From contig OZ076409.1 of the NCBI GenBank assembly GCA_964187785.1, positions 73,968,001 through 74,032,000 on the forward strand: a stretch of DNA of 64,000 nt. Reading direction: 5' to 3'. Position numbers and translations under genes: made by a program. The notes beneath the pieces are model-generated. The model did no database searches. It worked only from the letters and a program-made list of their open reading frames with translations, and was not told where the DNA came from. Below, piece by piece: positions 1 through 64,000 of this stretch. This stretch comes from Amphiscolops sp. MND2022 (lineage: Eukaryota). Position 1 is the first letter of the stretch. The number at the start of each line of letters is the position of its first letter.

Positions 1-1509
1 TAAGTTGGAAACCTTGGTATCCATGGTTTCTGTCGGAACCTACTCGCAGCCAAACACCCAACAGTTTGCATCCAATGTGAAATAAAAAATTTTTTCGAGG
101 TCATAAGCGTTTCACAAGGTTTTCATGATTTAGTATTAAATTACATAGTGGTCATTTTAAACATAAAATTTTGGTCCAGGCATGTCGGATATAGTCTGAA
201 TGCTCACGAACGGTCCTACTGGCAACGTAGGAACCATTTATAGTAATAAAAAGTATTAAAAATTTTTTTCACCCGGTCTTCAGTCATTTTTCAGATATTC
301 GGAACTTAACTTAGAAAATTTTCGAACCAAATACCCATTTTTTGTCAGGTCGAAAATTGAAATTCAGCTATTAAAGCAAAATTTTTTACTCTGACGTAAC
401 CAGTGGGGTCCATGATACTCAAAAATACGATTGGGACTGGTACCAATGGCTCCTATATCATATGAGCCGCGATAAGACGTTATTTTGAGCAATACGTCTC
501 AATTGAGGTAAACATCTCGCAAGCCTGGGATCACAGTGAAATGTAATTTCATCAAAAAATTACTCATTTTCGTCAATCACTATGTGCATAGAGTGGGTAG
601 GGTGAGTTCCAACACTATAATGAGGTTTTTGAAGGCATCGGGTTGCTCAAGGGGTGGTATGAGTCATTACTTTCCTATATACAACTGTATTTTCAAAAAC
701 TTTTAGCCCATTATCTGGAAAAACTAACTTGACAAAATACTTTCAATTACTTTATTCAAAGGTTACAATATAGATGAACACTGTGGTTGATCAGAAACTT
801 TCATCTCTTTCGTTTTCCGAAATAACTCCTTTCAAATGTGTTACATTTGTAGCAGGAAAAAAAACTGAAACTAAAAAATACGCGATTTTGCTGAGATAGA
901 ATCGCAATGGTTGCGCCTAAAATCTCTTTAAAAACTTCTAACGCAGCCTTATGGACCCAAAATGATTGAAAATGCCATTCACAATGCTGACATGTGCTCT
1001 TTCTACGATCCTGGCTGGACAAGTTTTGCATTTTTTTCAAGTACCTGTTAACTGAACATTGTGATAGCCTTTCAAGTTGGCCTTGTGTCAACTTGGGAAG
1101 GCTGTCACATCAAAAAACTGTCCACAAAAATACCATTTGTTTATAGGATATTGCTGTCGATGCTTCACTTCGTGATTCGATCATGTCGTGAGTTCCTTCC
1201 ATCAGGTCAGCTAACATTTGGATTCAGTGTTGGATAAGAACCTATGATTTTCATGACAATTTTCGTTTTTTTTTTGCCAACAAAAAGTACAAATAAATGA
1301 TATAAAACATATTTGTAACCTCTAGGAAGTTTAACTTTACCTTTTTTACCGTTACCATCACAACCCACCCCCTACGACCTCGCAGTGTCCTCATTACAAC
1401 GCCACATAGTGTAGCGACGCCCACAGTCTGTGGGCATGCCGAGGCATGCCCTTCGACGACGTATGCCAAAAATAGCGCCCTCCGCGGTCACTACCGCGGT
1501 AGCAGCTAG
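1..1509 (+). mobile_element. Unit 0 (5' part outside window), ~2-kb class; close copy of unit 23014-25003
   Basis: Body matches 23494-25003 (ORF-track offset 23493). Internal hairpin H2 at 1061-1108, core palindrome 1432-1451, terminal hairpin CCGCGGT-cact-ACCGCGG, then CTAG 1506-1509. Confidence 0.7.
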
Positions 1510-2787
1510 GTGGTCGTTAGCATGGGATTTTCTTTATGAGCGTAGTCCACTTTTTTTAGGCCGGGGTAGGGTCCCGGGCCGTTACCAATTTCTTACGGAG
1601 GAAAAATGTGAAAATCTGCGAGTTTAAAAAATTGGCCCGTACGATTTGGCTGAAAATTGGCACACAGCATCGTCTTGGTAAACAAATGACTTTGTCCTAG
1701 TGACATTTTGCCCAGAAAATTCAAAAAGTTGGTCAAATTGAAAATTTTTTGACCGTCTAAGGCTAAAATTTGACTTTTTCGCTTTTTTTGGTCAATTTCC
1801 TCAGAACTGGTTGATTTTGGTGAAGTAAGTCATAAGAGGTTATAAGGTCTGCAAAAAGCCATCAATTGGCTTGCATAATCAGATTTTGTCAAAAGTGTTT
1901 AGTTTTTTCAAAATTCCACACTTTTTTTTCATGTCAGTGTTTTTTGATACAATTTATTGAATTTTTACTAAGTTCCACTAAATATTTTTAAAATGTTTTT
2001 AAAAAACCTTTTTTTGCACGTTTTTGATGTTTTTTGCTCTCCCATATAGGTTTTCGCATACGGGGAACCTGAATCTGACAACGAAATAATTTTATTCCGC
2101 AGTTCAACTTACGCCATTTTTAATAGTGAAAAATCACTCATTTTCAATCTAACGAGTGAAAATATCAGAATTTAAAAACCTAAAGTTGAGTTTAAGGCGA
2201 CTTACAGGTAGAAACAAATGCTCAGAAACAAACTGATTTCTTGTATTAGCTAAAGAAAGCCTTTAAAATTCTTTTTACTTTCTTTAAATCAAAATTCGAC
2301 ACTTTTCATGAAATTTGTCAGTGGAAAAAATTTATCATTTTTTAAATTAAAAACTTGCTTTGTTGGTCATTTCCGTTAGTCATTAGTAGCTGTGTAATGC
2401 TCCAAAGCCTTTCAAGTTCTTTTGACCCTATTTGAAAATTTTTGATACTGCATAATCAATCCGAGAGAACGAAACAGTTGTGTACATTCCATCTCCCTCT
2501 TGGGGGAGATGAGAATGTACTTCCTAAAGTCCAGGTACTACAGATCATATTTGGTTTTATGCGACGCCCTCTATGCTAGTGCATATAAATACAAGTTGTT
2601 TGGCTGGATTTTGCTTCTGACTTGACGTATACTGTACGTTTGGTACTGACAATACCCATCATTTACATAACAAACGTCAACGCCACATACCCTTACCAAC
2701 GCCCATAGTCCGTAGGCATGCCGAGGCATGCCTTTCGACGACGCGCGCCAAACACAAGCGCGCCCGCACTTTTGCGGTAGCAGCTAG
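1510..2787 (+). mobile_element. Unit 1, 1278 bp, ~1.3-kb class, distinct family
   Basis: Starts GTGGTC. Left hairpin 1559-1580, H1 hairpin 2482-2520, core 2714-2733, CTAG 2784-2787. Body is seen only once in the window. Confidence 0.7.
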
Positions 2788-5022
2788 GTGGGCGGGGGTA
2801 ATTCCCCAACAAAAAAATCGGCCGGCGGGTCGGGTCCTGCCGGCCGTCCAAAATCAAAATTATACTAGTAGAAAACGGCCGGTCAAACGAGCTATTTTTT
2901 TATTTAACCGTTAGAATTTGGGTTTAGATTGCATGCGGCCATGAAATGGCCATACGAATCGAAGTTCCTGCTGACGTTTTGCGATTGAAACACTTTATAA
3001 AAAGTTATGGCCAATTTGTCAGTCACCTAGAAGGGCAAAATGAGGAAAATTTTAACAAAGTCGCTGATAACTCAAAATGTGTTATTTTTTGGACTTTGAC
3101 TGTGAAACAAGCTTGGAACCTTCATTTCGTGGCTGTGGCATTGCACTGAACGCAAAAGATGTAAAGTTTTTACATTTTTTGAAAATTTGACATTTTTGAA
3201 ATTTTTTTCACTACTATCAGTACCATATATGTCAAAAACACCTCAGAAAAAAAATTTTATTTGCTTTAACTTGGAAACCTTGGTATCCATGGTTTCTGTC
3301 GGAACCTACTCGCAACCAAACAACCAACAGTTTGCATCCAATGTGAAAATAAAAAATTTTTCTGGGTCATAAGCGTTTCACAAGGATTTCTCAACTTAGT
3401 ATTGATTTACAAAATGGTCATTTTGAACACAATATTTTCATCGAGGCTTGTCGGCTATAGCCTTAATGTTCTAGAACGGTCCCACTGGCAACGTAGGAAC
3501 CATTTATAGTAATAGAAAGTTTAAAAAATATATTATCACCCTGTCTTCAGTCATTTTTCTGTCATTCGGAACTTAACTTAGAAAAATTTCGACCAAAATA
3601 CCCATTTTTTGACAGATCGAAAATTCAAATTCAACTTTTTAAGCAAAATTATTAACTCTGACGTAACCAGTGGGGCTCATGATACTCAAAAACACGATTG
3701 GGACTGGTACCAATGGCTCCAATATCATATGAGCCGCGATAAGACGTTATTTTGAGCAATACGTCTCAATTGAGGGAAACATCTCGCAAGCCTGGGATCA
3801 CAGTTAAAAGTGATTTCGTCAAAAATTTACTCTTTTTCGTCAATCACTATGTACACAGAGTGCGTAGGGTGAGTTTCAGCACTATAATGCGGTTTTTGAA
3901 GGAATCGGTCTGCTCAAGGGGTGGTATGAGACATTTTTTTTGCATGTAGTACTATATTTCTCAAAACTTTTAGCCCATTATCTCGAAAAGCTCACTTCGC
4001 AAATTACTTTCAGTTACTCTATTCGAAGCTTAGAATATATATGAACACTGTGGTTGATCAGAAACTCTTGACTATTTTGTTTTTGGAAAAAAACTGCCTT
4101 GCATGTGTTACATTAGTGGCAGGAAAAATACCAGTAGCTCCAAAAATCACAATTTTGGACGGACAGACCTGCAATGATGCAAAGCAAAAACGTTTCAACA
4201 ACTTCTGGCGCCACTTTTTTTACCCAAGAGGTTCGAAATTACTATTAACAATGCTGACATTCGCTATAAATAAGATCGAGGTCAATTTATTAACACTTAG
4301 GTTATACATTTATATCTGAGAAACCATTCTTTGTCAGGTCGCAATTTTAAATTTAGTTTGGGAAGCAATACTTTTCACTCTGAAGCAAACCGTTGGGCCC
4401 AAATTACTCAAAAACTACAAAAAGACTGTCACCATATGCCCTAATAGCATATGAGATTCGACCGTTCGTTTTTAACACAAAAACTCTCATCCGAAGTAAA
4501 CATGTTGAAAGCCTTGAATCACCGTGAGAAATGATTTCATCAAAAAATATTCCTTTTTCGTCAATCTTTATCTACACAGAACACGTTGTGTCATTTTCAG
4601 CCGTGAAATGAGCTTCTACCGTAATATGGGTTGCTCAAGGTGTTGTATAAGTCAAAAACTTCCTCTTTTCTACTATCTTCTTCAAATATTTCAACCCTTT
4701 GTCACAAGAAGTTAATATTCAAAATCTCTTTGAAATGTTTCTTTAGGTTGGGGTGAAGTGTTAGAACAATAATTATGATCGAAGAATGATAGTATTGGTG
4801 TTTGGACCATGTCCGGATGAACAAATTGCAAAATCATGAAAAATTTCTTACCATTTTTGGTCATTTTGTCAGTACTAAAAATGTTAGCTGAAAAAGAATT
4901 TTTTTGATGGCACCATTGGATTCCTCTCAAAAAGTTAGCTATATGAACTGTGTAATAACCCCGTATCTTTTCAATTTAAATAATTTTAAAAAGCAAACTT
5001 TTTTGACTAAAATCCTAAAAAT

Positions 5023-6370
5023 CATACCATTTCCTAAAAAATTTCAAATGCCCCCCATTTGACGTATAAGAATAGCACAGAAAACTATCACATACCGATC
5101 GACTCTACTTCCATTGTAAATTACCAGAATTTTGTTTAGAACAATTTTTGACGGATGCAAAAAAAATTTAAACCCTCCAAAAAAGGGCCAAAATTACACG
5201 AAAAAATTGACCTTAAAATTTTAAAATGTCGAAAAATCATCAAAACCACAGCTTCTTGGGGTTCTATCAACTCCACGTGGTCCACAGAGTATGTTAAAAC
5301 AAGTTTTACCCGTATTTGAGCAATATGTGAAAAAGCCGACTTTTTTGGGAATGAAAAACATACCATTTCCTAAAAAATTTCAAACGCACCCCATTTGACG
5401 TATAAGAATAGCACAGAAAACTATCACATACCGATCGACTCTACTTCCATTGTAGGTTACCAGAATCTTGTTTAGAACAATTGTTGACGGATGCAAAAAA
5501 AAATTAAACCCTCCAAAAATGGGCCAAAATTACACGAAAAAATTGACCTTAAATTTTTAAAATGTCAAAAAATCATCAAAACCACAGCTTCTTGGGGTTC
5601 TATCAACTCCACGTGGTCCACAGAGTATGCTAAAACAGGTTTTACCTGTTTCTGAGCTATATGTGAAAAAACCGACATTTTGGGGAAGAAAAACATACCA
5701 TTTCCTAAAAAATTTCAAATGCACGCCATTTGCCGTATGAGAATAGCACAGAAAACTATCACATACCGATCAACTCTACTTCTATTGTAGATTATCAGAT
5801 TCTTGTTTAGAACAAATTTTTATGGATATAAAAAATTTTTAAACCCTCCAAAAATGAGCCAAAATAACACGAAAAAATGGACCCTAAATTTTTAAAATGT
5901 CAAAAAATTATCCAAACCACAGCTTCTTGGGGTTCTATCAGCTCCACGTGGTCCACAGAGTATGCTAAAACAGGTTTTGCCCGTTTTTGAGCAGTATATG
6001 AAAAAGCCGACATTTTTGGGGAAGAAAAACATACCATTTCCTAAATAATTTCAAATGCAGGCAATTTGCCGTATGAGAGTAGCACAGAAAACTATCACAC
6101 ACCGATCAACTCTACTTCTTTTGTAGATTATCAGAATTATGTTTAGAGTAAAGTTTTATGGATATGAAAAATTTTTATACCCTCCAAAAATGGGCCAAAA
6201 TGACACGAAAAAATTGACCTCAAATTTTTAAAATGTCAAAAAATTATCCAAACCACAGCGTCTTGGCGTTCTATCAACTCCAAATGACCTTCAGAGTATA
6301 CCAAACCAGGTATTGCCAATCTTTTGAGCAATATTTAAAAACACCGACAATTTGGCAAGAACACCATAAT
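5023..6370. repeat. Internal tandem repeat, ~4 x 336 bp (unit 2)
   Basis: CATACCATTTCCTAAA recurs at 5023, 5359, 5694 and 6030. End position approximate. Confidence 0.9.
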
Positions 6371-7436
6371 ATGTTCCATATAAGAAGTGAATCATTCCAC
6401 ATATATACCCGGTCTAATATTTCCAAATTAGCGATAACATTTATACATGATGGTTTTTGAAAGTGAGCTTCATAAGAGGTTGAGATGTAATAATACGTAA
6501 ATGGACCCTAAGTTTCATTGAAATCTCAATTGAATACGTCCAATCAACTTCAATCCTAACTATTATATATCAAAAAACACTTGAGTACATTCCATCTCCC
6601 CATCGGGGGAGATGAGAATGTACTTTTCAAAAGCCAAAAACTTCGAATTTTAAATCTTTTGTAACATTGTATGTAACTGTTGAAACGATGAACGAATAAA
6701 AATGCTTCTAGTACCTTCATCAATTTTTGCTTCAGCTCCTATTTCTGCAGAACAAAACCAAAAGACACACTTACAGCAGTTAAGTTCGATTGTATAACTC
6801 AGTGAATAAAGGTATGACTGAGGAAGTTCACAAGTTGTTTCAAAAGTTTCCGGCCTTCCAAAATCATGAAACGTCCACACAACCAAGATAGCAAGTGAAA
6901 GAATGCTGAATGCACCTTATTAGATGAGATAAATAATGTGTGGAACTTGCCATTATCTCAAGATGACGTTGATTTATGATCTTTTCAGGATAGTTCGATA
7001 TGTGACCACAATAGTGGAAAACTTATTACTATTTGAAGAACACCGTGGAAAGCGTTCAGAAAGGACAGTATATTTGTTTCGAGCATGCATGCGTGTGTTC
7101 CTTTGGTGACGTTAGCTTAGTGTACATGACGGAGGTATTCGAGAGATTATGATAGAGTTTACTCACAAGTCTTTGTTTTTTTAAACTTTCTATGCCGTTG
7201 AGTACATTCGTAAGGTACATCCATCCCCTTCTCTGGGAATGTACGTTTGCCAAATGACTGTCATCCAAAATTCGTAATCCGGACGAGTTTAACTACATAA
7301 ACATGTGATGAGCGTTTTCAATTCACAACCGAATAACATTTTTTTCTCGAAAATGATGATGGTTTTGATTTTGATGTCTTCTACTTTTATCATCATGCAA
7401 ACGACCTTACCATGTCTCTCTTCTGTCGTCATTTGT

Positions 7437-7549
7437 ACAACGCCACATAGCGTTCCGACGCCCACCGTCTGTGGGCATGCCGAGGCATGCCCTTCGACGA
7501 CGTATGCCAAATGAGCCATACCCGCACTCTGGAGTGCGGTAGCAGCTAG
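7437..7549 (+). other. Representative conserved right-end module (present in all 23 unit ends)
   Basis: CAACGCC...CGACGCCCAC-GTCYGT-RGGCATGCCGAGGCATGCCY-TTCGACGACG-variable spacer-GC hairpin-CTRR. About 48-59 nt separate the palindrome from the end. Confidence 0.9.
7473..7492. promoter_or_regulatory. Invariant 20-bp palindrome, probable protein-binding site; 19/20 match to the p53-family response element (representative of 23 copies)
   Basis: GGGCATGCCG|AGGCATGCCC compared with RRRCWWGYYY x2 with zero spacer. Function not demonstrated. Confidence 0.5.
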
Positions 7550-9531
7550 GTGGGCGGGGGTAATTCCCCTTCAAAAAATTCGGCCGGCGGGTTGGGTCCT
7601 GCCGGACGTCAAATAGTGTGAAACATCCAGTAGGAAACGGCGACATTTATCAGCGATTTTAAAATTTAACCGTTAGAATTCGGACTTGGAGTGCATGCGG
7701 CCCCAAAATGCCCATACGAATGGAAGTTCCTGCTGACGTTAAGCGATAAAAACACTTTATAAAAAGTTATGGCCCATTTTACGTTCACTTAGAGAGGTAA
7801 AATGAGGAAAATTTTAACAAAGTTGCTGATAACTCAAAATACTTTAATTTTTGGACTTTGACTGTGAAACAAGCTTGGAACCTTCATTTCGTGGCTGTGG
7901 CATTGCACTGAACACAAAAGATGTAAAGTTTTCACATTTTTTGAAAATTCGACATTTTTGAATTTTTTTCACTACTATCTGTACACTATATGTCAAAAAC
8001 ACCTCTGAAAAAATTTTTTGTTTGCTTAAATTTAGAAACCTCGGTATCCATGGTTTCTGTCGGAACCTACACGCAGCCAAACACTCAACAGTTTGCATCC
8101 AATGTGAAAATAAAATTTTTTTCGGGGTCATAAGCGTTTCACAAGGATTTCTCAACTTAGTATTAATTTACAAAATGGTCATTTTGAACACAATATTTTC
8201 ATCGAGGCTTGTCGGCTATAGCCTTAATGTTCTAGAACGGTCCCACTGGCAACGTAGGAACCATTTATAGTAATAGAAAGTTTTAAAAAAATTTTTTCAT
8301 CCGGTCTTCAGTCATTTTTCAGTCATTCGGAACTTAACTTAGAAAAATTTCGACCAAAATACCCATTTTTTGTCAGGTCGAAAATTCAAATTCAGATTTT
8401 TAAGCGATATTATTAACTCTGACGTAACCCATGGGGCCCATGATACTCAAAACAACGATTGACACTGGTATCAATGGCTCCAATAACATATGAGTCGCGA
8501 TAAGACGTTATTTTGAGCAATACGTCTCAATTGAGGTAAAGATCTCGCAAGCCAGCGATCACTGTGAAATGTGATTTCATCATAAATTTACTCATTTTTG
8601 TCAATCACTATGTGCACAGAATGCGTAGGGTGCGTTTCAGCACTATAATGAGGTATTTGAAAGCATCGAGTTGCTCAAGGGGTGGTATGAGACATTTTTG
8701 TCCCATATACTTCTGTATTTTCCAAAATTTTTAGCCCAATATCTGGAAATACAAACATGACAAATAACTTTCAACTACTTTATTCAAAGGTTACAATATA
8801 GATGAACACTGTGGTTGGTCAGAAACTTTCATCTCTTTCGTTTTCCGAAATATTTCCCTTCGCATGTGTTACATTTGTAGCAGAAAAAAAATCGATACTG
8901 AAAAATACGCTATTTTGCTAATATAGAATCGCAATGATTGTGCCTAAAAACTCTTTAAACACTTCTAGCGCGACCTTACGCACCCAAAATTATCGAAAAT
9001 GCTATTCACAATGGTGACATGTGCTCTTTCAACGATCCTGACTGAACAATTTTCGCAAATTATTCAAGTACCTGTTAACTGAATCTCGTGATAGCCTTTT
9101 AAGTTGGCCTTGTGTCAACTTGGGAAGGCTATCACATCAAAAAATTTCCAACAATAATACTTTTTGTTTATTGGAAATGACAGTCGATATATAATTTCGT
9201 GATTCTATACTACCGTTAGTACCTTCCATTAAGTCACGTGACGATTGCATTCAGTCTTTGATAAATACCTATGAACTCGAAGTCATATTTATAAATTTTT
9301 CGCTAAAAATAATTATCAAAATTATCCAAATTATTTAAAATTGAGTCTTTATCGTTTTTGTTTTTCTTTTTCTACTGTTATTAGGCCCATCAACTTCCTA
9401 CAGCCACGCTCTCTGTCATTAGTACAACGCCACATAGTGTTGCGACGTTCACAGTCTGTGGGCATGCCGAGGCATGCCCTTCGACGACGTATGCCGAATA
9501 CCGCGGGCCTACGCCCGCGCTCCCCGGCTAG
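7550..9531 (+). mobile_element. Unit 3, 1982 bp, ~2-kb class
   Basis: Shares its first ~1.27 kb with the 4.76-kb class. H2 at 9088-9135, core 9460-9479, hairpin CGCGGGC-ctac-GCCCGCG, CTAG 9528-9531. Confidence 0.75.
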
Positions 9532-21039: not shown

Positions 21040-23013
21040 GTGCGGGGGGGAAACCCCAACAAAATTTTTGGAGGATTCGGGTAGGGTCCTGAATCCGAGT
21101 TCAGTGCTGCCAGCTTTCGTTAAGAAAATTTGGATAGGATTCGGGATCTCGTGATCTAACCATAGGATTTTAAAGTTGGAGCGGCCCCCACCAGATTTTC
21201 CGAAAATTAGCGCCCCCCACCGGGTTCCATACCCCGGAAAATTTTTTTCTGGCCACACGGGCGACCGTTAGGGGGTCATTTTAGGGGTAAAATTCATATT
21301 GGGCCACATAACTTTTTTTCTGTTGATTTAAAACTTTGGGACCCTGCTAAAAGTTTCTTGACCGTGTTGCAAGGGCTCCGGAGGTCCAAACCAAATTTTT
21401 CTATCTTGAAGCTATCTCCAAGTACCCCCCCGCCCAAAACGTTATTTTTCCGGAAACGCAGGTTTTAGACCCGGAAGGAGTCGTCTGAGCGCGGGGTCGT
21501 TAGGTGATGTTTTGGGGACGGCCTTAAGACGAAGTGGGGGACATGTAGTTTGTCAACCTCAGTTTACCCCCCGGACAGGAAATGACCGTTATATGAGCGG
21601 GAAAATTGCCCCCCTCCACGTTTTACCGCTATTTCCGGTGTGAAGGAGTGGGAGTAGCGCGTCGGGTGTTATATAACAAAAGTAGGTTTAGACAAGAACC
21701 TATCGGAAACATGTAGTTTGGGACCCTCTGGACCAACCCGTTAGCGGGAAATGGCGCTTCCGCTTCCTTTTTTTACTGCTAAAACCGTAAAATGGGCATT
21801 GAGGGGTAAATATCTCGTGAACGCGTGGAGCAATCGTGTCCATCACTACTACAAGGTTTCATACCCATGATATGGTGCCTTCAGGGGGGCAAACAGATTT
21901 CCGCTATCTATCACCGTTACGGACTTGGCCCCCCAGCCTAACCGCTATGTGACCGGAAATGTCACTTTTTGAGCCCAAAGGGTCGGTCCCAGCCGGGGAA
22001 CGTTAGGTAACTTATTGTAGTACTCAATGAGACGAGTTGGGGGACATAGTTTCAGTCACCCCCCGTTACCCCTTGGGACCGGAAATGACCGTTATGTGGG
22101 TAAATTTGCTTTTTTTATACTCTTTGAAGTGGATTTATGTGCGGAAGGAGTGGTAATAGGTGCTTGGACACTATATGAGGTAAGGGAGGACGTGAGGCGA
22201 GCATTCGGAAATAACCGTTATGTTGACCCTAAAGTCCCCCTGGTACCGGAAGTGACCCGTAATGGTCAAATTTTGTGTTCAAAGGGTACAAATGTTTGGT
22301 GTTTTATGGATAACAGTGCCTATTAGGTGTTTCGACGGTCTGCAGTCGTGAACATATTCATGAAACCTTGTGGGGGGTAACGGTATAAAGCACCGGAAGT
22401 CCAAACCTTTGGAGAAAGGATAAGTTTTTTGGTTTTAAAATGTCTTTCGGCCTACTTTTGTCGACTATTACGGTCTATTTTTGAAAAATAATGTTTTTCC
22501 ATATAGTTTCAGAGACTCCGAAACCTCAACCAACATAACCGTTACGTTATGATAGCCTTTCAAGTTGGCCTGGTGTCAACTTGGAAGGGCTATCCTTCAA
22601 AAATCATTAATCAATTGTGTTTTTGAGTATGTTTGTATTACTTTAGAATCAATTAGAGCTTCAAAAAAGTTTGCCAACGACAAAAACTATGTCGTGATGA
22701 TTCCGTTATTAGAATAATGGTTAAGAAAATGTTGATAAATTTGATTTTTTACATTTCAAATGTGTCCTAAATGCCAGAAAACCTCTTTACCAAACAAATG
22801 GTATTGAGTGAATTGTATATAACAGCTAATAAAAGTTCAAATTGAATATTACGTTTCATTTTGGAAGCTGAAACGTCATATTGTAGTTTAATTAACGTCA
22901 ACGCCACATACTTTACATCAACGCCCACCGTCCGTAGGCATGCCGAGGCATGCCTTTCGACGACGTATACCAGATTCCACCCACACAACACCCCCGAGCG
23001 CGGTAGCAGCTAG
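21040..23013 (+). mobile_element. Unit 7, 1974 bp, ~2-kb length but a different, GC-richer body
   Basis: Starts GTGCGGGGGGGAAACCCC. Left hairpin 21073-21096, many CCGGAA motifs, H2 at 22551-22594, core 22936-22955, CTAG 23010-23013. Confidence 0.7.
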
Positions 23014-50200: not shown

Positions 50201-50292
50201 TGTTAATCAACGCCCACCGTCCGTAGGCATGCCGAGGCATGCCTTTCGACGACGCGCGCCAAAAACAATATAACGGCGCCACCTGCTTCTGG
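47221..50292 (+). mobile_element. Unit 16, 3072 bp, ~3.07-kb class, distinct family
   Basis: Starts GTGGTCAGTG. CCGGAA(G/A)T clusters, H3 hairpin 49623-49664, core 50225-50244, ends CTGG 50289-50292. Confidence 0.7.
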
Positions 50293-53200: not shown

Positions 53201-53362
53201 CCGTGCAAAGCTTTTTTTCACACCATGTGACTCAACTATTACATGTATGTAATGAAACCAATAACACCTTCAACTATCAACGCCCACCGTCCGTAGGCAT
53301 GCCGAGGCATGCCTTTCGACGACGCGCGCCGGAAACAATCTAACGGCGCCACCCGCTTCTGG
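50293..53362 (+). mobile_element. Unit 17, 3070 bp, ~3.07-kb class
   Basis: Paralog of unit 16. H3 at 52696-52737, core 53295-53314, CTGG 53359-53362. Confidence 0.7.
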
Positions 53363-56300
53363 GTGGTCAGTGCTGTTGCGTTCATTTTTTTCCGGCCGTG
53401 GGGGAGGGCCCCTCTGAGGCCGGTCATTTTTCAGGTAACAGCTTTCTTATACAAAAAAGCGGGAAAAAACCTCAGTGCTCAAATCCCAACCGTCAGAATG
53501 AGCTGAAATTTGGCATGTAGCTAGTGCATTGCAAATGATTAGGATGGGTTATAACGCTATGTTTGGCAAAATTGGTTTTGTTGCATTTTTTTTGTCATAT
53601 AGGGCCAAAAATGGCCTTTTTTGCGTATTTTTTGCTTGACTAGCTAATAACTCGCGTTGGGTTGGTACTAGCGATACGGGTGTGGGGTATGGAATTGTAA
53701 GAATACCAAGTACCTTGCTGATCACGTTATTTGATTTCCGCTCACATCACCCCCCACGCCGGAAATGCCCAATTTGTCACTTCCGGTCGCAATTTTTGAC
53801 TTTTTTGGATGGAGTTAAAACCCATTTCCGGTGTGAAGGAGTGGGTTGAGCGCTTCGACCCCAATATACTAAAAGTAGGTTTAGACAAAGTCCTATTAGG
53901 AAAAAAGTAATGTAAGCCCGTACCTATCACCCCCTCACCGGAAATAGGGCTCACGCCTCCTTTTTCTGTGTTGCAAAAGTGACATGTGCACATTTGTCCA
54001 ACTCCGAAGCCCCGGAGCACCGTGGGACCCTTATACTTTCTAAACACCTATCCCACACGCTACCGGAAGTGACCGGAAGTTTCACCGGAAATGACATCCT
54101 TGGACCGGAAATGGTCAAAAAATGACTTTTCAATGCAAAATAGACACATTTGGTGCGGTTTTTAGGCAAAAAGCATAGTTCGTGAAACACTTGTTGCAGT
54201 TGGAAGGGCCATTGTTCAGCAAGAATGCATACAGCATTACGTAGCACATCAAGTGGTTGATAATTTTTCGTCCATAATATCCATAGGACCGGAAATGGCC
54301 ATTTTTGAATCGGAAACTTCTTCAGCTTGATTTTTAACAAGTTTTTCCACAATATTAGTGTAGGAATTGCTCGTCGGATGCTTTAGGTCTATTTTAAAAC
54401 TAGCTAACTGCTTCTTAGAAATGTATTGCAGAAGTCCCAATCATATCTAGATGACCGGAAATGGGAGTGATTGCCTCCTTTATAACCTTTGAATGATAAA
54501 CTGTTAAAATCCGCAAATTATTTTATTCCACAATTGTTGCTCAGGTTATATCTAAGCAATAACATCTGCTTGAGATGGAGTGCTGTAATGGGAGATACAA
54601 GTTTTGCTTTTTAATAGTATTACATACGTGATATCCGCCGCAATAAAGATTTTTCAAGTCAACCATTTTGAAGTCCTACTGGTATTCCGCACACCCGAAG
54701 CAATTTAAAACTTTAGTTTCGATTTTCAGCTTCCGCGACTATTTAGTTGAGATGATAGTTTTCACGTTCTTTGCAAAACGTGCATTTTATTGTGTATTTG
54801 ACATTTATTGGGCTGTTTCACATGGTAATTCAAAACTAATTGATCATACAATTTGGAACAATTGAAAATTTGAACAATTTTTTAATAATTTCCCTTTCGT
54901 TGAAGATACTATTTTGTGGCCATTAGAACAGGTTGAATTAATTGAATAAGTAGTCAGTGCGATACATCGTTTAATACATAGCGTTTGACATCGGTTTTTT
55001 TTGCGAACAAAGACAAGCATGATTTGTTGGAAGTTTTTACCATATCGCTTCAAATGGGGTGTGACAAACAATGAATTTCTCGTTTTAATTGCTACTTCGA
55101 AAGCAACCTGAAAACTCAAATCGATCTATTGAATTATCGAGATGAAACTAAGCATTTCAAGTCTGGATTTCAATTTAATTCTATCACTCCGGTCTATTTT
55201 TATGTCGCAAGAGTGATAAAGCGTGTTAGCAAGGTTAAACACATCGAACAATTTTAATAATAAAGCCTCCGGAAAGGGAAGAAAAAATGAGTTTTCCTGT
55301 CAAAACTATGATAACCATGTACGAAACATCAAGTTTTTGTATTGTTCAATAGTCCAAAACGTGAATGAAGTTTTTAAATATCCAAGCGTTTCTAATCAAG
55401 CATGCGTTTCAAATGTCTGACAGGGCAGCATCGTTCTCAAAAAACATTGCTTTCAATGTGGTTTGATACCAGCAAAACGAACGTAGGCACAACCAGATTC
55501 TCAAAATTCTTGCACAACAACCAATTTCTTTGGAAATTCTATTTGATTCCTCAGGGTATAAGGTGAGAACCCTGGTGGGTTCCAAATTTGATTAGCAGTT
55601 TTTTGGGTTCGCGAGATAAGTTACAACGGAAATCTGAAAGCAGGTCGTCTCAATAAAATACCTGTTGCTCTTTAAACGATTGGACTTAAGTAGTCGAAAT
55701 TTATTCTCAGACACTTTCGATCAGAGAATGTTTGAGTCCTAACGTTCGAATCAGGTTGGTTTCAGGTGGCTCGAAGTGCCAGCTGAACCAACCTTTCAAA
55801 TAAAGAAAAACCCCACATCTCCCTTCATGCCACGCTACCCCGTATAGCGTTTCAACTTGACAGAAGTTGGAACGTTTGATTTTGGCGTCGCTTGGGATTG
55901 ACACACCAGTGTTGATACTAAATTTGGCAAAGAGAAATCGCAGAAATGATTGTTTCTTTTTTTCCCTTTGATTTAGTCTGTCGAGCGTACAAAGCAGTTT
56001 GGGAAACTAACTTGCATTTCCACTGAACGAAAAAAAGTAGTAGCCTTGCAAACTCCTGGACGAAATTGAATCAGGTTTTCCTATTTGTGAGATCAGCTGT
56101 CACTCAATTATCAATTACTTTTTCAAAAATTTTTAGGAACAACTAACCTAACTCTGCTCGACTCTCTTGAATAATGCAACAATCGTTTACTGATCTGTAC
56201 TCGTGAGAAAAAAATCAACTGCAGGTCCAAAAACAATCTATATATCTTTGGTTTATTCCGTGCAAAGCTTTTTTTCACACCATGTGACTCAACTATAACA

Positions 56301-56419
56301 TGTATGTAATGAAACCAATAACACCTTCAACTATCAACGCCCACCGTCCGTAGGCATGCCGAGGCATGCCTTTCGACGACGCGCGCCGAAAACAATCTAA
56401 CGGCGCCACCCGCTTCTGG
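53363..56419 (+). mobile_element. Unit 18, 3057 bp, ~3.07-kb class
   Basis: Appears to be a mosaic of unit 16-like and unit 17-like variants. H3 at 55753-55794, core 56352-56371, CTGG 56416-56419. Confidence 0.7.
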
Positions 56420-57722
56420 GTGGCCACGACCATGGTTTCTTGCGTATCTTGTCGAATCTTTTGTCGTTGCCGGCCGGGGAGGGACCCGTTTGCCGGCGTG
56501 TGTAGTGTGGGGCCCCCATACCCAAAAAGTGGTATTTTTTTCAGAGATCTCAAAATCGGCCCGTCAGAATTGCCTGAAATTTGGCATGAGGCTCCCAATT
56601 GGGGAAAAAATAAGAAGTGTAGGAGGCGACTTGTTCGGGTAAATATTGTATGTTGACTTTTGGCCAAAATAGTGTTCCCCCCCAACATGGGCAAAATCAC
56701 ATGAGGTGTAAAAATATGATCACAACTTTTGAACCTTTGGATTTAGGGGTACGGTCGTGGACCACATTAAGCAAGAGCTTTGGTGAGCGGGTAGGATAGA
56801 TGAGTTTTGATCCCAGTACCTTCAACCACTTTTGAGAAATTAACGTTTCAAACAAACATCCGGGAGGTATCTGTTGCCCCTGAAGGCAGGTTTTTCGCCA
56901 TTTTCAATGTGAAGGAGTGGGTTTAGCGCAACGTGTGTGGGGTGCTTTTTTGTTGCCCGTGTGCGGAGCGTTGTATAGAGGTGCTGGTTGTTGAAATTGG
57001 AAAAGTTGGTAAAAAGTTATACCTATACCCCCCCTACTGTCTCTGCCATTCAATTTTTTTTTCAACTTCAGGCCTCCCAAAGGTGAGAAACTTCCACACA
57101 ACTAGTATTGCAAGTGAATGCATGTGGAAAGTACTTGGATAGACGAGAAAAATGAGCTATAGAACGACTCTGTAGCTTAACTTGACGTTGACTTATGACA
57201 TTTTGAGTGTGAGCTTGCTATGTGAGAAAAAAATTCAAAATTGAAAATCGAAGTAAGTCTCATCCAAAACTCATCGAAATACGTTCAATCCATCCCAAAG
57301 CGGATTAATTCCAGATATATAGTGCAGCAACACTATTCAAGACCATTTGACACAATTTTACTAGTTTTGACATTGTATTATTCATCCGAGAGCACAAAAC
57401 AGTTGGGTACATTCCATCTCCCTTTCGGGGGAGATGAGAATGTACCCGCTAAATGACACGCACCATGGTCTAAATTTTACCTTTATGCGACACTTTCTAG
57501 GCTTTCGCGCAAGCCCACTAATATTTAGACTGGTTTCTTTCTCTTTCACTCCAAACATTCCGTCCGTACTAACCACCTTACACACCACCAGCAGCTCAAC
57601 GACACATCTGTAACGTCAACGCCACATACTTGCATCAACGCCCACCGTCCGTGGGCATGCCGAGGCATGCCCTTCGACGACGTATGCCCGTTGTCACAAC
57701 AGGGCGCCCCTACATTCTCTAG
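56420..57722 (+). mobile_element. Unit 19, 1303 bp, ~1.3-kb class, distinct family
   Basis: Starts GTGGCC. Left hairpin 56469-56497, H1 at 57405-57447, core 57653-57672, CTAG 57719-57722. Confidence 0.7.
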
Positions 57723-59716
57723 GTGGGCGGTAGGTTTCCCGTAGTCAAAAAAAAATTGCAGGCCGGGGTAGGGGCCCTGGCCGAGGCAAAATACCATAGA
57801 AAAGGTACCAAATTATGTGAGTTTAGAAAATTGAGCCATACAAATTCTCTGAAAATTGCTGTGTGTACCCTATCGCCCAATCTAAGAACTTTTTCCTGCT
57901 GACGTTTTGCTCTCCAAATGTTACTAATATGACTTTTTGAAAAATTTATCTCTGGTTTTTCATCAAAAATAGTGATTTTGGCAATTTTTGTGAAATATCT
58001 CTGATTGCATTAATTTTTGGACGTTGACTGTGAAACAAGGTCGGAACCATCATTTCGTGACCATGGCAATGCACTAAACACAAAAGATGTAGAGTTTTTA
58101 AATTTTTGGAAAATTTGACATTTTTAAATTTTTTTCACTACTATCAGTACCATATATGTCAAAATAACCTCAGAAAAATTTTTTTATTTTATTTAATTTA
58201 GAATCCTTGCTATCCATGGTTTCTGTTAGTATCTACTCGCTGCCAGAGACTCAACAGTTAGCATCGAATCTGAAATTAAAAATTTTTTCGAGGTCATAGG
58301 TGTTTCACAAGGATTTCACAACATAGTCTTGTTTTACAAATAGGTCATTTACAACATCATATTTTCATCGAGGCATGTCGGATATAGTCTTATTGCTCAC
58401 GAACGGTCCTACTGGCAACGTAATAACCATTTATAGAAATATAAAGTTTTTAAAAAATCTTTTTACCCGTTCTTCAGACATTTTTCAGACATTCGGAACT
58501 TAACTTAGAAAAATTTCGTCTCAAAAACCCATTTTTCGTCAGGTCGAAATTTGAAATTCAGCTTTTGAAGCACAAATATGCACTCTGACGTAACCAGTAG
58601 GGCCAATGATACTCAACAACACCATTGAGACTGGTATCAGTCGCTCCAAAAACATATGAGCCGTGATAAGACGTTTTTTTCAACAATACTGTTCAATTGA
58701 TGTAAACATCGCGGAAGCCTTGGATTACAGTGAAAGTTGATTTGAACAAAAATTTACTCTTTTTTGTCAATCACTATGTAGACAGAATGCGTAGGGTAAG
58801 TTTCAGCACTAATATGAAGATTTTGAAGGAATCGGGTTGCTCAAGGCGTGGTATGAGACACTTTTTTCTCATATACTAGTGTTTTTCAAAACCTTTTCGT
58901 TAAATATCTCGAAAAGCAAACAATAAAAAATACTTTCTGATATCTAATTTAATTCCTAGAATATAAATGAATCATGTGGTTGATCAGAAACTCTCTACTT
59001 TAATGTTTCCAGAAAAAAATCCCTTCCCATGTTTTATATCTGTAGCAGTAAAAAAAGTAGACGCTAAAAAATACGCTATTTTGCTAAGATTGAATTGCAA
59101 TTGTTTAGCTTTAAAACTCTTTTAATACTTCTAACGCCACCTTAAGGACTCAAGATGATTGAAAATGTCAATCACAATGCTGACATGTAGTCTTTCTACG
59201 ATCCTGGCTGGACAGATTTTGATTATTTTTCAAGTACCTGTTAACTGAATCTCGTGATAGCCTTCTAAGTTGACCTTCTGCGTCAACTTGAGAAGGCTAT
59301 CACTAAAATAAACTAAATTCTGATTTGTTTGTTTGTTCCTAACGTCTTTTGGTACGATCGTCTTACGGTTAGTTGGTTAAACCAGGTCGCTTATACTTCC
59401 ACAATTTTCGACCACCGTCCGTGTATTCGGTTCACACGACTTTACATTTTCAGTCGTTTGTTTTCGATAACTATCACAATGTACTGCCATTAGCGCAAAA
59501 TTCATACTAGTACTTGGTTGGTTGAAATACTCAAACAACTGTTTCCATAGTTATTCGCGGTGATGGTACAATCCGCGCGCCTACATACCTACGGCGTCTT
59601 GTCACTACAACGCCACATAAGGAAACAACGCCCATAGTCCGTAGGCATGCCGAGGCATGCCTTTCGACGACGCGCGCCAAATCTATGCGCGCCCGCACTT
59701 GTGCGGTAGCTGCTAG
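57723..59716 (+). mobile_element. Unit 20, 1994 bp, diverged ~2-kb class member with distinct ends
   Basis: Middle is homologous to unit 3 but diverged. H2 variant 59254-59303, core 59643-59662, terminal hairpin CCGCAC-ttt-GTGCGG, CTAG 59713-59716. Confidence 0.7.
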
Positions 59717-61704
59717 GTGCGGGGGGGGTAATTCCCCAACAAAAATTACGGCCGGCGGGTTGGGTCCTGCCGGACGTTCAAATAGCGCGAAGCATCTAGT
59801 AGAAAACAAGGAGTCCTGAAACAGCGATTTTAAAATTGAACCGTTAGAATTTGGTTTTAGATTGCATGCGGCCCTAAAATCCCCATACGAATGGAAGTTC
59901 CTGCTGGCGTTAAGCGATTGAAATAATATATAAAAAGTTATGGCCCATTTTTGGGTCACCGAGAAGGTCAAAATGAAGAAAATTTTAACTAAGTTGCTGA
60001 TAACTCAAAATGTGTTAATTTTTGGACTTTGACTGTGAAACAAGCTTGGAACCTTCATTTCGTGGCTGTGGCATTGCACTGAACACAAAAGATGTAAAGT
60101 TTTCTCATTTTTTGAAAATTCGACATTTTTGAATTTTTTTCACTACTATCAGTACACTATATGTCAAAAACACCTCTGAAAAAATTTTTTATTTGCTTAA
60201 ATTTAGAAACCTCGGTATCCATGGTTTCCGTCAGTACCTACTCGCTGCCAAACACTCAACAGTTTGCATCCAATGTGAAAATAAAATTTTTTTCGAGGTC
60301 TTAGGTGTTTCACAAGGATTTCTCAACTTAGTATCAATTTACAAATTGGTCATTTTGAACACATTATTTTCATCGAAGCGTGTCATATACCGCCCTAATG
60401 CTCACGAACGGGCCTACTGGCAACGTTGGAACCATTTATAGTAATAAAAAGTTTTAAAAAATTTTTTTCACCCCGTCTTCAGTCATTTTACACACTTTCG
60501 GAACTTAACTTAGAAAAATTTCAACCAAAAACCCATTTTTTGTCTAGTCGAAAATTCAAATTCAGCTTTTTAGGCAAAATAAGTAAATCTGACATAACCA
60601 GTGGGGCCCATGAAACTCAAAACCACGATTGAGACTGGTATCAATGGCTCCAATAACATATGAGTCGCGATAAGACGCTATTTTGAGCAAAACATCTCAA
60701 TTGAGGTAAAGATCTCGCAAGCCAGCGATCACTGTGAAATGTGATTTCATCAAACATTTACTCTTTTTTGTCACTCACTATGTGCACAGAATGCGTAGGG
60801 TGCGTTTCAGCACTATAATGAGGTTTTTGAAGGCATCGAGTTGCTCAAGGGGTGGTATGAGACATTTTTGTCCCTTATACTACTGTAGTTTCCAAAATTT
60901 TTACCCCAATATCTGGAAATACAAACTTGACAAACAACTTTCAACTACTTTATTCAAAGGTTACAATATAGATGAACACTCTGGTTGATAAGAAACTTTC
61001 ATCTCTTTCGTTTTCGGAAATATTTCCGTTCGCATGTGTTACATTCATAGCAGAAAAAAAAATCGAAACTGAAAAATACGCTATTTTGCTGATATAGAAT
61101 CGCAATGATTGTGCCTAAAAACTCTTTCAACACTTCTAACGCAACCTTACGCACCCAAAATGATCAAAAATGCTATTCACAATGGTGACATGTGCTCTTT
61201 CTACGATCCTGGCTGGACAAGGTTTGCATATTTTTCAAGTACCTGTCAGCTAAATCTTGTGATAGCCTTTTCAGTTGGCCTTGTGTCAACTTGGGAAGGC
61301 TATCACATCAAAAAACCATCAACAAAAAAAATTTTTGTTTATTGGATCTTACAGTAGATACTTTTTTCGTGATTCTATACTACCGTTAGTATATTTCATC
61401 AGGTCACCTTACGATTGCATTCAGTCTTTGATAAAAACCTATGAACTCAAAGTCACATTTATATATTTTTTTGCCAGAAAATAACATCAAAAATATCTAA
61501 AATTTATAAAATAGAGTCTTTAACATTTTTACGTTTCAAGTTTTTGCCGTTATTAGGCCAATCAACGTCCTAGAGCCACATCCTGCCACATACTGTACAA
61601 CGCCACATAGTGTTGCGACGTGCACAGTCTGTGGGCATGCCGAGGCATGCCCTTCGACGACGTATGCCGAATACCGCGGGCCTACGCCCGCGCTCCCCGG
61701 CTAG
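59717..61704 (+). mobile_element. Unit 21, 1988 bp, ~2-kb class
   Basis: Core 61633-61652, CTAG 61701-61704. Confidence 0.75.
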
Positions 61705-63693
61705 GTGGGCGGGGGTAATTCCCCAACAAAAATTACGGCCGGCGGGTCGGGTCCTGCCGGACGTTCAAATAGCGCGAAGCATCTAGTAGAAAACAAGGAG
61801 TCCTGAAACAGCGATTTTAAAATTGAACCGTTAGAATTTGGTTTTAGATTGCATGCGGCCCTAAAATCCCCATACGAATGGAAGTTCCTGCTGGCGTTAA
61901 GCGATTGAAATAATATATAAAAAGTTATGGCCCATTTTTGGGTCACCGAGAAGGTCAAAATGAAGAAAATTTTAACTAAGTTGCTGATAACTCAAAATGT
62001 GTTAATTTTTGGACTTTGACTGTGAAACAAGCTTGGAACCTTCATTTCGTGGCTGTGGCATTGCACTGAACACAAAAGATGTAAAGTTTTCACATTTTTT
62101 GAAAATTCGACATTTTTGAATTTTTTTTCACTACTATCAGTACACTATATGTCAAAAACACCTCTGAAATTTTTTTTTTATTTGCTTAAATTTAGAAACC
62201 TCGGTATCCATGGTTTCCGTCAGTACCTACTCGCTGCCAAACACTCAACAGTTTGCATCCAATGTGAAAATAAAATTTTTTTCGAGGTCTTAGGTGTTTC
62301 ACAAGGATTTCTCAACTTAGTATCAATTTACAAATTGGTCATTTTGAACACATTATTTTCATCGAAGCGTGTCATATACCGCCCTAATGCTCACGAACGG
62401 GCCTACTGGCAACGTTGGAACCATTTATAGTAATAAAAAGTTTTAAAAAATTTTTTTCACCCCGTCTTCAGTCATTTTACACACTTTCGGAACTTAACTT
62501 AGAAAAATTTCAACCAAAAACCCATTTTTTGTCTAGTCGAAAATTCAAATTCAGCTTTTTAGGCAAAATAAGTAAATCTGACATAACCAGTGGGGCCCAT
62601 GAAACTCAAAACCACGATTGAGACTGGTATCAATGGCTCCAATAACATATGAGTCGCGATAAGACGCTATTTTGAGCAAAACATCTCAATTGAGGTAAAG
62701 ATCTCGCAAGCCAGCGATCACTGTGAAATGTGATTTCATCAAACATTTACTCTTTTTTGTCACTCACTATGTGCACAGAATGCGTAGGGTGCGTTTCAGC
62801 ACTATAATGAGGTTTTTGAAGGCATCGAGTTGCTCAAGGGGTGGTATGAGACATTTTTGTCCCTTATACTACTGTAGTTTCCAAAATTTTTACCCCAATA
62901 TCTGGAAATACAAACTTGACAAACAACTTTCAACTACTTTATTCAAAGGTTACAATATAGATGAACACTCTGGTTGATAAGAAACTTTCATCTCTTTCGT
63001 TTTCGGAAATATTTCCGTTCGCATGTGTTACATTCATAGCAGAAAAAAAAATCGAAACTGAAAAATACGCTATTTTGCTGATATAGAATCGCAATGATTG
63101 TGCCTAAAAACTCTTTCAACACTTCTAACGCAACCTTACGCACCCAAAATGATCAAAAATGCTATTCACAATGGTGACATGTGCTCTTTCTACGATCCTG
63201 GCTGGACAAGGTTTGCATATTTTTCAAGTACCTGTCAGCTAAATCTTGTGATAGCCTTTTCAGTTGGCCTTGTGTCAACTTGGGAAGGCTATCACATCAA
63301 AAAACCATCAACAAAAAAAAATTTTGTTTATTGGATCTTACAGTAGATACTTTTTTCGTGATTCTATACTACCGTTAGTATATTTCATCAGGTCACCTTA
63401 CGATTGCATTCAGTCTTTGATAAAAACCTATGAACTCAAAGTCACATTTATATATTTTTTTGCCAGAAAATAACATCAAAAATATCTAAAATTTATAAAA
63501 TAGAGTCTTTAACATTTTTACGTTTCAAGTTTTTGCCGTTATTAGGCCAATCAACGTCCTAGAGCCACATCCTGCCACATACTGTACAACGCCACATAGT
63601 GTTGCGACGTGCACAGTCTGTGGGCATGCCGAGGCATGCCCTTCGACGACGTATGCCGAATACCGCGGGCCTACGCCCGCGCTCCCCGGCTAG
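61705..63693 (+). mobile_element. Unit 22, 1989 bp, ~2-kb class, near-identical tandem copy of unit 21
   Basis: ORF track repeats at offset 1989. Core 63622-63641, CTAG 63690-63693. Confidence 0.75.
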
Positions 63694-64000
63694 GTGGGCG
63701 GGGGTAATTCCCCAACAAAAAATTCGGCCGGCGGGTTGGGTCCTGCCGGACGTCAAATAGTGTGAAACATCCAGTAGGAAACGGCGACATAAATCAGCGA
63801 TTTTAAAATTTAACCGTTAGAATTCGGACTTGGAGTGCATGCGGCCCCAAAATGCCCATACGAATCGAAGTTCCTGCTGACGTTAAGCGATAAAAACATT
63901 TTATAAAAAGTTATGGCCAATTTTTGGTCCCCATTAGATGTAAAAATGATGAAATTTTTCATAAAAGGGCAAATATCTCAAAATGCAATAATTTTTAGAC
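63694..64000 (+). mobile_element. Unit 23 (partial, left end only)
   Basis: Left end like units 8 and 13, diverging from them after ~63920. Confidence 0.65.

Follow-up and report, generated by a model that had tools for sequence, protein, structure and literature searches.

A head-to-tail array of Helitron-like rolling-circle transposons that probably insert at their own junctions in the genome of Amphiscolops sp. MND2022

The stretch of DNA considered here (the window; 64,000 nucleotides, C1:73,968,001–74,032,000 of contig OZ076409.1) lies inside the 1.07-Gb assembly of Amphiscolops sp. MND2022 and consists of units that abut head to tail, which we interpret as Helitron-like rolling-circle transposons. 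An earlier note on the window had described different mobile families joined at one junction, CTRR/GTG (the slash marks the joint), and its 23 junctions are real and lie where it had placed them, including those at 1509/1510, 21039/21040, 47220/47221, 56419/56420, and 57722/57723. The window contains exactly 23 plus-strand CTRRGTG sites, i.e., 20 CTAG/GTG and three CTGG/GTG; the geometry thus held in 23/23 cases, but the tetranucleotide is always CTRG and never CTRA (0/23). The first junction occupies 1506..1512 on the plus strand, and the others follow, on the same strand, after positions 2787, 7549, 9531, 14293, 19055, 21039, 23013, 25003, 26988, 31738, 36503, 38488, 40470, 45232, 47220, 50292, 53362, 56419, 57722, 59716, 61704, and 63693. 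All 13 minus-strand CTRRGTG matches in the window are unit-internal and lack the RGGCATGCCGAGGCATGCCY motif, which is found 68–79 nt upstream of the junction in 23/23 cases. Unit-by-unit comparison revealed no spacer, nesting, truncation, or inversion within the window, as had been claimed, but genome-wide this does not hold, since rare solo copies, nested copies, and one inverted junction occur.

The window holds 22 complete units, all on the plus strand and of uniform length per family: nine A, six A-long, one diverged A-like, one B, one C, three D, and one E. It opens with the 3′ part of an A-type non-autonomous 2.0-kb unit (1..1509) that starts 478 nt upstream of the window, followed by a B-type non-autonomous unit of 1278 nt (1510..2787) and an A-long unit of 4.76 kb (2788..7549). 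Other A-long copies lie at 9532–14293, 14294–19055, 26989–31738, 31739–36503, and 40471–45232, while the 2.0-kb A-type unit at 7550..9531 recurs at 19056–21039, 23014–25003, 25004–26988, 36504–38488, 38489–40470, 45233–47220, 59717–61704, and 61705–63693. The C-type unit (21040..23013; 1974 nt, 44.5% GC) is 75–80% identical to the 5′ non-coding region of an autonomous lineage described below (lineage 2). Three D-type units of 3.07 kb with CTGG ends (47221–50292, 50293–53362, and 53363–56419) share 93–95% identity with one another, the E-type unit (56420..57722; 1303 nt) has 98% copies on both sides of the window with other neighbors, and a diverged A-related unit of 1994 nt occupies 57723..59716. 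Only the start of the next A-type unit (63694..64000) is included, the array running on past the window. An internal tandem repeat of four 336-bp copies is present at 5018–6355 and in five further A-long units, and many small families are close to 1.27–1.39 kb or 1.98 kb in length, which hints at a length constraint.

A-long units share their first ~1.47 kb with the 2.0-kb A units, whereas BLAST similarity between the A group, B, C, D, and E is mostly limited to the last 40–115 nt; B and E have ~350 nt in common at 69%, and divergence inside one family reaches ~17%. Because one related group (A, A-long, and diverged A) makes up 16/22 complete units, cross-family joins, which had been called frequent, do exist but form a minority in the window. 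The units themselves are indeed without evident coding capacity (the longest stop-to-stop frame is 157 aa, and an Rfam scan of the window gave 0 matches); they are members of a single Helitron-like clade rather than of unrelated classes.

The window is evidently a piece of a head-to-tail array that, at ~6.0 Mb, is larger than first reported, mapped by sampling and presumed continuous between samples. On C1 this array is one-directional, with its first junction at 70,454,838 behind a host CTAG and the last one seen at 76,484,933. All 20 samples from 70.8–76.0 Mb contain plus-strand junctions, which are still present at 76.3 Mb and absent from six samples at 68.5–70.4 Mb and five at 76.6–78.0 Mb. 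The array DNA sampled (306 kb) contains no N, and both C1 array ends grade into non-array DNA. The array is interrupted at 72.44 Mb, where one 7-kb sample holds an inverted unit (L130/L177; C1:72.4445 Mb) that directly adjoins the initial 23 nt of an A unit; the joint does not fit CTNG and is probably an inversion breakpoint within the array. C1 carries further, smaller arrays, as do C2, C3, C4, C6, C7, C8, C9, and C10, that on C2 reaching the contig end, and family composition differs between regions. Strand switches at a point within arrays were seen at C2 ~102.7 Mb, C3 ~2.5–2.6 Mb, and C1 ~23.978 Mb, and the C1:23.97 Mb stretch includes an assembly gap. A 29-nt form of the motif that precedes the junctions has 4733 exact genome copies versus 0 for a reversed control, so the pattern is not due to chance. 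A plain satellite was rejected as the identity of the array, and a centromere role was not supported, as Mb-scale clusters were found only on C1, C2, and C3 among the matches listed.

A trans-acting HUH enzyme encoded outside the window had been postulated, together with a search for a long unit with the same ends, and such units were found. Autonomous units of 12–20 kb share the ends of the window units and encode a two-tyrosine HUH (HUH-Y2) Rep fused to a PIF1 helicase (RepHel) with a C-terminal GIY-YIG region. One of them (12.3 kb; C1:74,036,950–74,049,214) starts only 4,950 nt past the window end, is flanked by junctions of the same kind, and has its RepHel frame in two pieces (536 + 1888 aa). 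An array at C1:24.0 Mb holds a 13,675-nt unit with the ends GTGCC...CGTCTAG, in which a 2377-aa frame matches the Pfam families Helitron_like_N (E 3.4e-10), PIF1 (E 1.6e-11), and GIY-YIG (E 1.2e-4, 22.7 bits versus a cut-off of 22.6). A genome search with a Rep query gave at least 145 matches (141/423 candidates scored), and 35 of the 145 listed fall in C1:70.5–76.5 Mb, all on the plus strand. Intact-looking autonomous copies on different chromosomes have 100% identical Rep regions. The array contains five RepHel lineages that are only 28–34% identical over the aligned protein and are joined by the same junction. Motif 1 (FxTxTCN-like), HUH (EFQxxxGNxxHxH), and YxxxY are kept across all five, the latter two being intact in 20/20 aligned proteins. 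The 3′ ends of 5/5 lineages and the 5′ ends of 4/5 are standard junctions, the 5′ end of lineage 5 being uncertain, and lineage 4 matches the D units of the window at 96.7% over the first 907 nt and 93% over the last 86 nt. The tyrosine recombinase named earlier as an alternative enzyme is not needed, and a tyrosine-recombinase element was rejected. No tyrosine integrase family appeared in the Pfam scans, which covered the element open reading frames (ORFs).

The AlphaFold model of the enzyme is weak (predicted local distance difference test, pLDDT, 44.6), and the best fold match of this weak model is Helraiser 7lcc_A (Z 8.5, root-mean-square deviation 3.1, 169 residues aligned; runner-up Z 5.0); a PDB sequence search with the Rep region gave no match to Helraiser 7lcc at E ≤ 10. 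Two accessory frames gave nothing in Pfam. ORF2 presumably resembles an SGNH hydrolase, judging from its motifs. ORF3 (about 280–440 aa, with conserved cysteines) had 0 matches in a profile search, and its OB-fold look-alikes POT1, CTC1, and CDC24 (scores 0.92) are a lead only, their recognition value being under the threshold of the tool. In lineage 2 and its metagenome relatives (L088, L157, L158, and L159), the RepHel frame is interrupted at one common position immediately upstream of the GIY-YIG region, which suggests a conserved intron or split. In one sub-lineage (P0003–P0010), the GIY-YIG residues look degenerate, and several of these proteins carry an OTU domain.

A Rep profile built from five sequences retrieved 1627 cluster representatives at E ≤ 0.001, the weaker of which may include canonical Helitrons, and 367 protein clusters at E ≤ 1e-30. 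Among the long relatives with a helicase match, 71/85 match a C-terminal GIY-YIG profile above 20 bits, a profile built partly from 15 of the same 85 relatives. DUF6570 is found in 0/6 clade proteins scanned versus 8/8 references of the Helitron-like element (HLE) group HLE2. In a tree of the Rep and helicase core, 37 members split from two HLE1-type and six HLE2-type copies with Shimodaira–Hasegawa (SH) support of 1.0 and a stem of 1.46, and IQ-TREE on 17 of the 45 sequences gave the clade split an ultrafast bootstrap (UFBoot) of 100. Mean distances to the references are 5.10 and 4.72, compared with 3.60 between HLE1 and HLE2. The tree is unrooted and its references are HLE1 and HLE2 copies from the same genome rather than published sequences, the two HLE1 copies being labeled from Pfam scores with ends unchecked; judged by it, the RepHel clade appears to fall outside HLE1 and HLE2 of this genome. 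HLE1-type and HLE2-type copies in the same genome are dispersed, none of the matches of at least 48 bits lying within C1:70.5–76.5 Mb; some of these dispersed HLE1-type and DUF6570-bearing HLE2-type Helitrons (L115–L124) carry JAB, OTU, UCH, or EN domains. Beyond this genome, metagenome contigs contributed three relatives, all too short for a junction to show, and 78 pattern matches among viral contigs included no relative. We found no description of the clade or the array in a literature search that covered sources other than subscription journals, Repbase and its Reports, Dfam, and supplements. HELIANO left HLEs unclassified in 19/404 genomes according to the text available (PMC11417382), and these may include the clade.

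The units share a candidate recognition site near the 5′ end. In the fetched DNA, 199 starts of 32 end types were found, and a core, GGGKAGGGNCCY, lies 36–41 nt from the end in 177/199, in a search that required such a core and retained overlapping loci. The core caps a hairpin whose outer arms vary by family (e.g., plus strand 2819..2846, with the core variant GGGTCGGGTCCT at 2827–2838), and overall the pairing is better with the own arm than with swapped arms (6.06 versus 5.07 ± 0.17; 0/2000). A metagenome contig (L159) encodes a RepHel with 42% identity to lineage 2 and carries, 1.3 kb upstream of this ORF, the same core set in a stem of its own. The 5′ hairpin is a candidate origin or recognition site common to the end types found. 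The GC hairpin that had been proposed before the CTRR end is less general: among five 3′ ends folded, it is strong in two (z of −3.4 and −2.9) and weak or absent in three (−1.5, −1.7, and +0.3), being strong in A-type ends (e.g., plus strand 1482..1499) and weak in D and E. Further upstream lies GGGCATGCCGAGGCATGCCC, a tandem GGCATGCC motif whose first of 23 copies in the window is at 1432..1451 on the plus strand. This pair resembles the consensus of a spacer-less p53-family response element and is a candidate site of that kind, and the C1 array probably holds thousands of GGCATGCC pairs that all point the same way. The pair is absent from lineages 1 and 5 and from several small families, so the motif is not required for joining.

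All 199 starts begin with GTG, in a search that required GTR, and a search anchored on the hairpin core agreed. At the other end, GCGGTAGCNGCTAG is followed by GTG in 2003/2086 cases, by GTH in 32, GV in two, A or T in 49, and C in none (controls gave 0–2). Where A or T follows, the second base is T in 28/30 (30 of the 49 fetched); non-GTG ends before G continue with GT in 32/34, and C is found at +1 in 0/83 non-GTG ends. D-type 3′ ends are followed by GTG in 141/149 cases and A starts are preceded by CTRG in 805/810. Upstream of solo or array starts, CTNG is present in 8/9 (CTGG twice, CTTG three times, CTCG once, and CTAG twice), the exception being L060. Empty paralogues of nested units read CTTG^GTA and CTGG^GTA (the caret marks the insertion point), 13 nt apart inside another unit, and those in host repeats read CTAG^GTC, CTAG^GAT, and CTTG^ATC, none with a duplication; L142 gave no clear picture, and CTNG is missing from some of the diverged paralogues of L126, L133, and L045. 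The target consensus is CTNG^DT, and insertion occurs without a target-site duplication (TSD). Dispersed solo copies starting with TC, in AT targets or with TSDs, had been named as the observation that would speak against the earlier interpretation; solo copies are rare and have neither a TC start, an AT target, nor a TSD. CTNG was also rejected as a terminal direct repeat or TSD of the elements, since in L008, L011, and L012 the tetranucleotide on the left is not the same as that on the right. The joint CTRG/GT satisfies CTNG^DT, and every copy therefore regenerates a target. Because G is invariant on both sides, the cut, which had been allowed to shift within CTRRGTG, is narrowed to CTN^G or CTNG^. 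CTNGDT is common: 76 kb of host DNA contain 414 sites, which extrapolates to ~5.8 million in the whole genome, and 185/208 such sites in the window are unused, yet ~95–96% of ends lie at junctions, so the 6-mer alone is insufficient to explain the arrays.

Several individual sites were seen in addition. The internal CTTG^GTA of a 1.29-kb family is occupied at two loci (L147/L099, C8:25.69 Mb, and L131, C1:74.376 Mb), at the latter by at least two units that form a sub-array within a unit, and the CTGG^GTA 13 nt away holds another insertion. At L096 (C6:15.557 Mb) and L009, the host flank after the terminal unit starts with GTGG or GTGA, i.e., a seed site that mimics a junction. One solo copy (L010; C1:37.447–37.449 Mb) lies inside a retroelement that we take to be of Ty3/Gypsy type, and another (L009; C1:28.68 Mb) is flanked by what are presumably a reverse-transcriptase fragment and an hAT-like transposase frame, again judging from motifs.

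Unit order was analyzed for 51 contiguous units, which fall into 19 families at 80/80. Among 14 near-identical pairs (≥97%), none has a neighbor matching at that level (0/14), and the neighbors likewise differ from copy to copy for four near-identical autonomous units, located on C1, C2, C6, and C8. Near-identical copies with different neighbors show that units move singly, in agreement with the earlier view that they insert individually rather than as homogeneous concatemers. The tails of the units follow their own body (0.85 versus 0.58 when shuffled, 0/3000; neighbors 0.62–0.63).

We consider it likely, with a probability of about 0.7, that RepHel inserts new copies singly at the 5′ ends of resident copies and so builds the array. 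RepHel would bind the 5′ GGGKAGGGNCCY hairpin, nick CTRG^GTG, peel off the strand, and close a circle with a CTRG/GTG joint. A resident 5′ hairpin would be recognized like that of the donor, the donor joint and the chromosomal joint would exchange strands, and the incoming unit would land between two units, recreating two identical joints. Rare insertion at bare CTNG^DT sites would seed new arrays, and each lineage would favor the ends of its own family, giving short same-family runs. The OB-like ORF may coat single-stranded DNA and the GIY-YIG region may nick the second strand. For Helitrons, nicking and covalent binding of the 5′ end and the formation of circles are described in the parts available of two reports (PMC13085455, PMC5148889). 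A bolder proposal, which we advance tentatively and at somewhat less than even odds, is that the elements represent an undescribed, widespread Helitron branch that works by origin-to-origin site-specific recombination, in which diverged RepHel–GIY-YIG lineages share a ~50-nt 5′ hairpin landing pad and build a polar multi-megabase domain with thousands of p53-like sites.

A number of points weigh against insertion at resident 5′ ends. Neither circles, nick sites, nor new insertions were observed, nearly all of the evidence comes from one assembly, and a fixed sequence does not reveal whether insertions are drawn to the 5′ end, to the 3′ end, or to both. None of the seven autonomous units examined has A-type ends, only 11/32 5′ hairpins fold at z below −2, the counts of ends followed by GTG include a few host flanks that happen to begin with GTG, and the junction share could be inflated if dispersed copies are selected against. 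Same-family neighbors are in excess (14/50 versus 4.6 when shuffled), D copies occur in runs of up to 10, and one adjacent pair (59717–63693) is 99.5% identical; the excess and the D runs are also predicted by concatemer insertion or local amplification. The same excess and the same pair, together with tails swapped among A and A-long units, would fit insertion at any CTNG^DT followed by host recombination and loss of dispersed copies, whether by unequal crossing-over or by circles recombining via the shared ~110-nt 3′ motif. We nevertheless regard this as unlikely: no multi-unit block is duplicated at ≥97% among the 51 units, tails track their own body, so cross-family crossovers within the motif are not usual, joining is equally precise in units that lack it, including lineage 1, and HLE1- and HLE2-type copies of the same genome have stayed dispersed. 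Copying past the 3′ end during rolling-circle replication, with mixed concatemers of adjacent units then inserted, would likewise account for same-family runs and for a two-family neighbor pair that recurs in two samples (L027 and L028), and such bypass is reported for Helitrons in the part of the source available (PMC5148889). It needs a prior source of mixed junctions, however, and near-identical copies change neighbors while adjacent D copies are only 93–95% identical, which makes it highly improbable.

Tethering offers a different account of the bias, in which a DNA-binding factor (e.g., a member of the p53 family bound at the GGCATGCC pair) or chromatin holds RepHel at the array and the best nearby target is taken. 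The fixed distance of the motif from the junction and its 4733 exact copies fit such a scheme, as do two nested insertions at internal CTNG^GTA sites and the regional family make-up, but the many unused CTNGDT sites of the window do not, and many junctions lack the upstream motif while the 5′ hairpin is universal among the starts found by a search anchored on it; we therefore think tethering distinctly improbable. We give hardly any credence to the mixed order being an assembly artifact. Order is known from the assembly alone and the C2 array runs into a contig end, but copies within a family differ by as much as noted above, the sampled array DNA is free of N, both C1 array ends pass into non-array DNA, and the same junction rule is found in arrays on numerous contigs as well as at those nested sites for which empty paralogues exist.

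With a two-tyrosine HUH Rep fused to a PIF1/SF1B helicase and no TSD at filled versus empty sites, the elements appear to be Helitron-like, although they lack the features of HLE1 (TC, A^T, and position in the tree) and HLE2 (DUF6570, T^T, and position in the tree). Inspection of the printed ends, without a dedicated repeat search, revealed no evident terminal inverted repeats (TIRs). The likeness to HLE1 and Helraiser lies in the HUH-Y2 Rep–PIF1 protein, a 3′ CTRR end (with a hairpin often in HLE1 and strongly in two of the five array ends folded), the lack of a TSD, non-autonomous derivatives that share the ends, and the closest solved fold, as far as the available text of PMC11417382 and PDB 7lcc describe them. 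Unlike HLE1, the array elements have a 5′ GTG instead of TC, the target CTNG^DT instead of A^T, a conserved 5′ hairpin, and a C-terminal GIY-YIG, form a separate clade, and occur in arrays instead of as dispersed copies. With HLE2 (Helitron2/Helentron, proto-Helentron, and FoHeli) they share RepHel and a 5′ stem-loop that is present in some HLE2, and may share the OTU/OB-type accessory domains reported for HLE2; the text consulted for HLE2 also reports circles, occasional self-insertion, and one Sphagnum family with a captured GIY-YIG (PMC11417382, PMC5148889). They differ from HLE2 in the absence of DUF6570 from the proteins scanned and of a T^T target, and self-insertions, sporadic in Fusarium FoHeli as far as reported there (PMC5148889), are the rule in the array elements. 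An HLE clade of Paramecium also has a RepHel outside HLE1 and HLE2, a strict target, orientation bias, internal satellites, and non-autonomous derivatives, but with a telomeric-repeat target, CCAA ends, and ORFs of 9–10 kb, and with no occurrence of “GIY” in the main text (PMC13085455). The array elements, in contrast, probably target their own junction, have ORFs of ~7 kb, and show neither CCAA ends nor telomeric-repeat flanks. Compared by description, this Paramecium clade comes closest to an earlier example of an outlying Helitron group with a specific target.

HUH enzymes such as TrwC, acting at oriT, and adeno-associated virus (AAV) Rep can integrate DNA at a resident copy of their own origin. 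By analogy, the logic of the array may resemble such origin-directed HUH integration and, as a polar cassette array, that of integrons. The “integron-like” label given earlier holds for the layout, but no captured host genes were found and, unlike integrons, neither attC-type sites nor, in the element ORFs scanned, a tyrosine integrase. The end of an IS91 element recreates a target-like tetranucleotide, and we know of no megabase multi-family arrays of IS91 type. IS91 further resembles the array elements in its HUH-Y2 transposase and oriented insertion beside a tetranucleotide without a TSD, and differs in being prokaryotic and lacking a fused helicase, as described in the text available (PMC10288648). 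Replitrons are likewise HUH transposons of eukaryotes that insert in a fixed orientation on the 3′ side of a short target, but the same text gives them a Y1 Rep without a helicase and short terminal direct repeats (PMC10288648), whereas the array elements have a Y2 RepHel. The upstream CTNG of the array elements is derived from the target and differs from their own CTRG in L008, L011, and L012, unlike the direct repeats of Replitrons. Tandem or centromeric Helitron arrays were reportedly described by Xiong in 2016. Helitron-rich clusters with autonomous and non-autonomous copies are known from plants and Meloidogyne, where, in the part of the source available, HLE1 copies are interleaved with satellites or occur as truncated tandem copies (PMC13404089); here, full-length units of many families abut without a spacer over ~6 Mb. 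In the available text of a preprint on a centromere atlas, Helitrons receive no more than a brief mention (10.64898/2026.09.17.752431).

The mixed, precisely joined array is thus confirmed and can be explained to the level of the enzyme and its target, while we infer the self-targeting step. It is poorly understood how the circles of Helitrons select a target and become joined to it, and since the target here is a defined junction that is recreated with each insertion, and intact-looking autonomous copies exist, target choice becomes directly testable. The ends of this clade are likely missed by annotation based on TC or TIRs. If the 5′ hairpin suffices to direct integration, it would offer a small landing site at which insertions could be made repeatedly and without a TSD, and if the landing pad is communal, a short site could serve as a repeat-loadable integration tool for kilobase cargo. 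For the genome itself, directed transposition rather than satellite amplification is a likely route to megabase arrays, and the array may act as a shared safe haven for lineages that are only ~30% identical.

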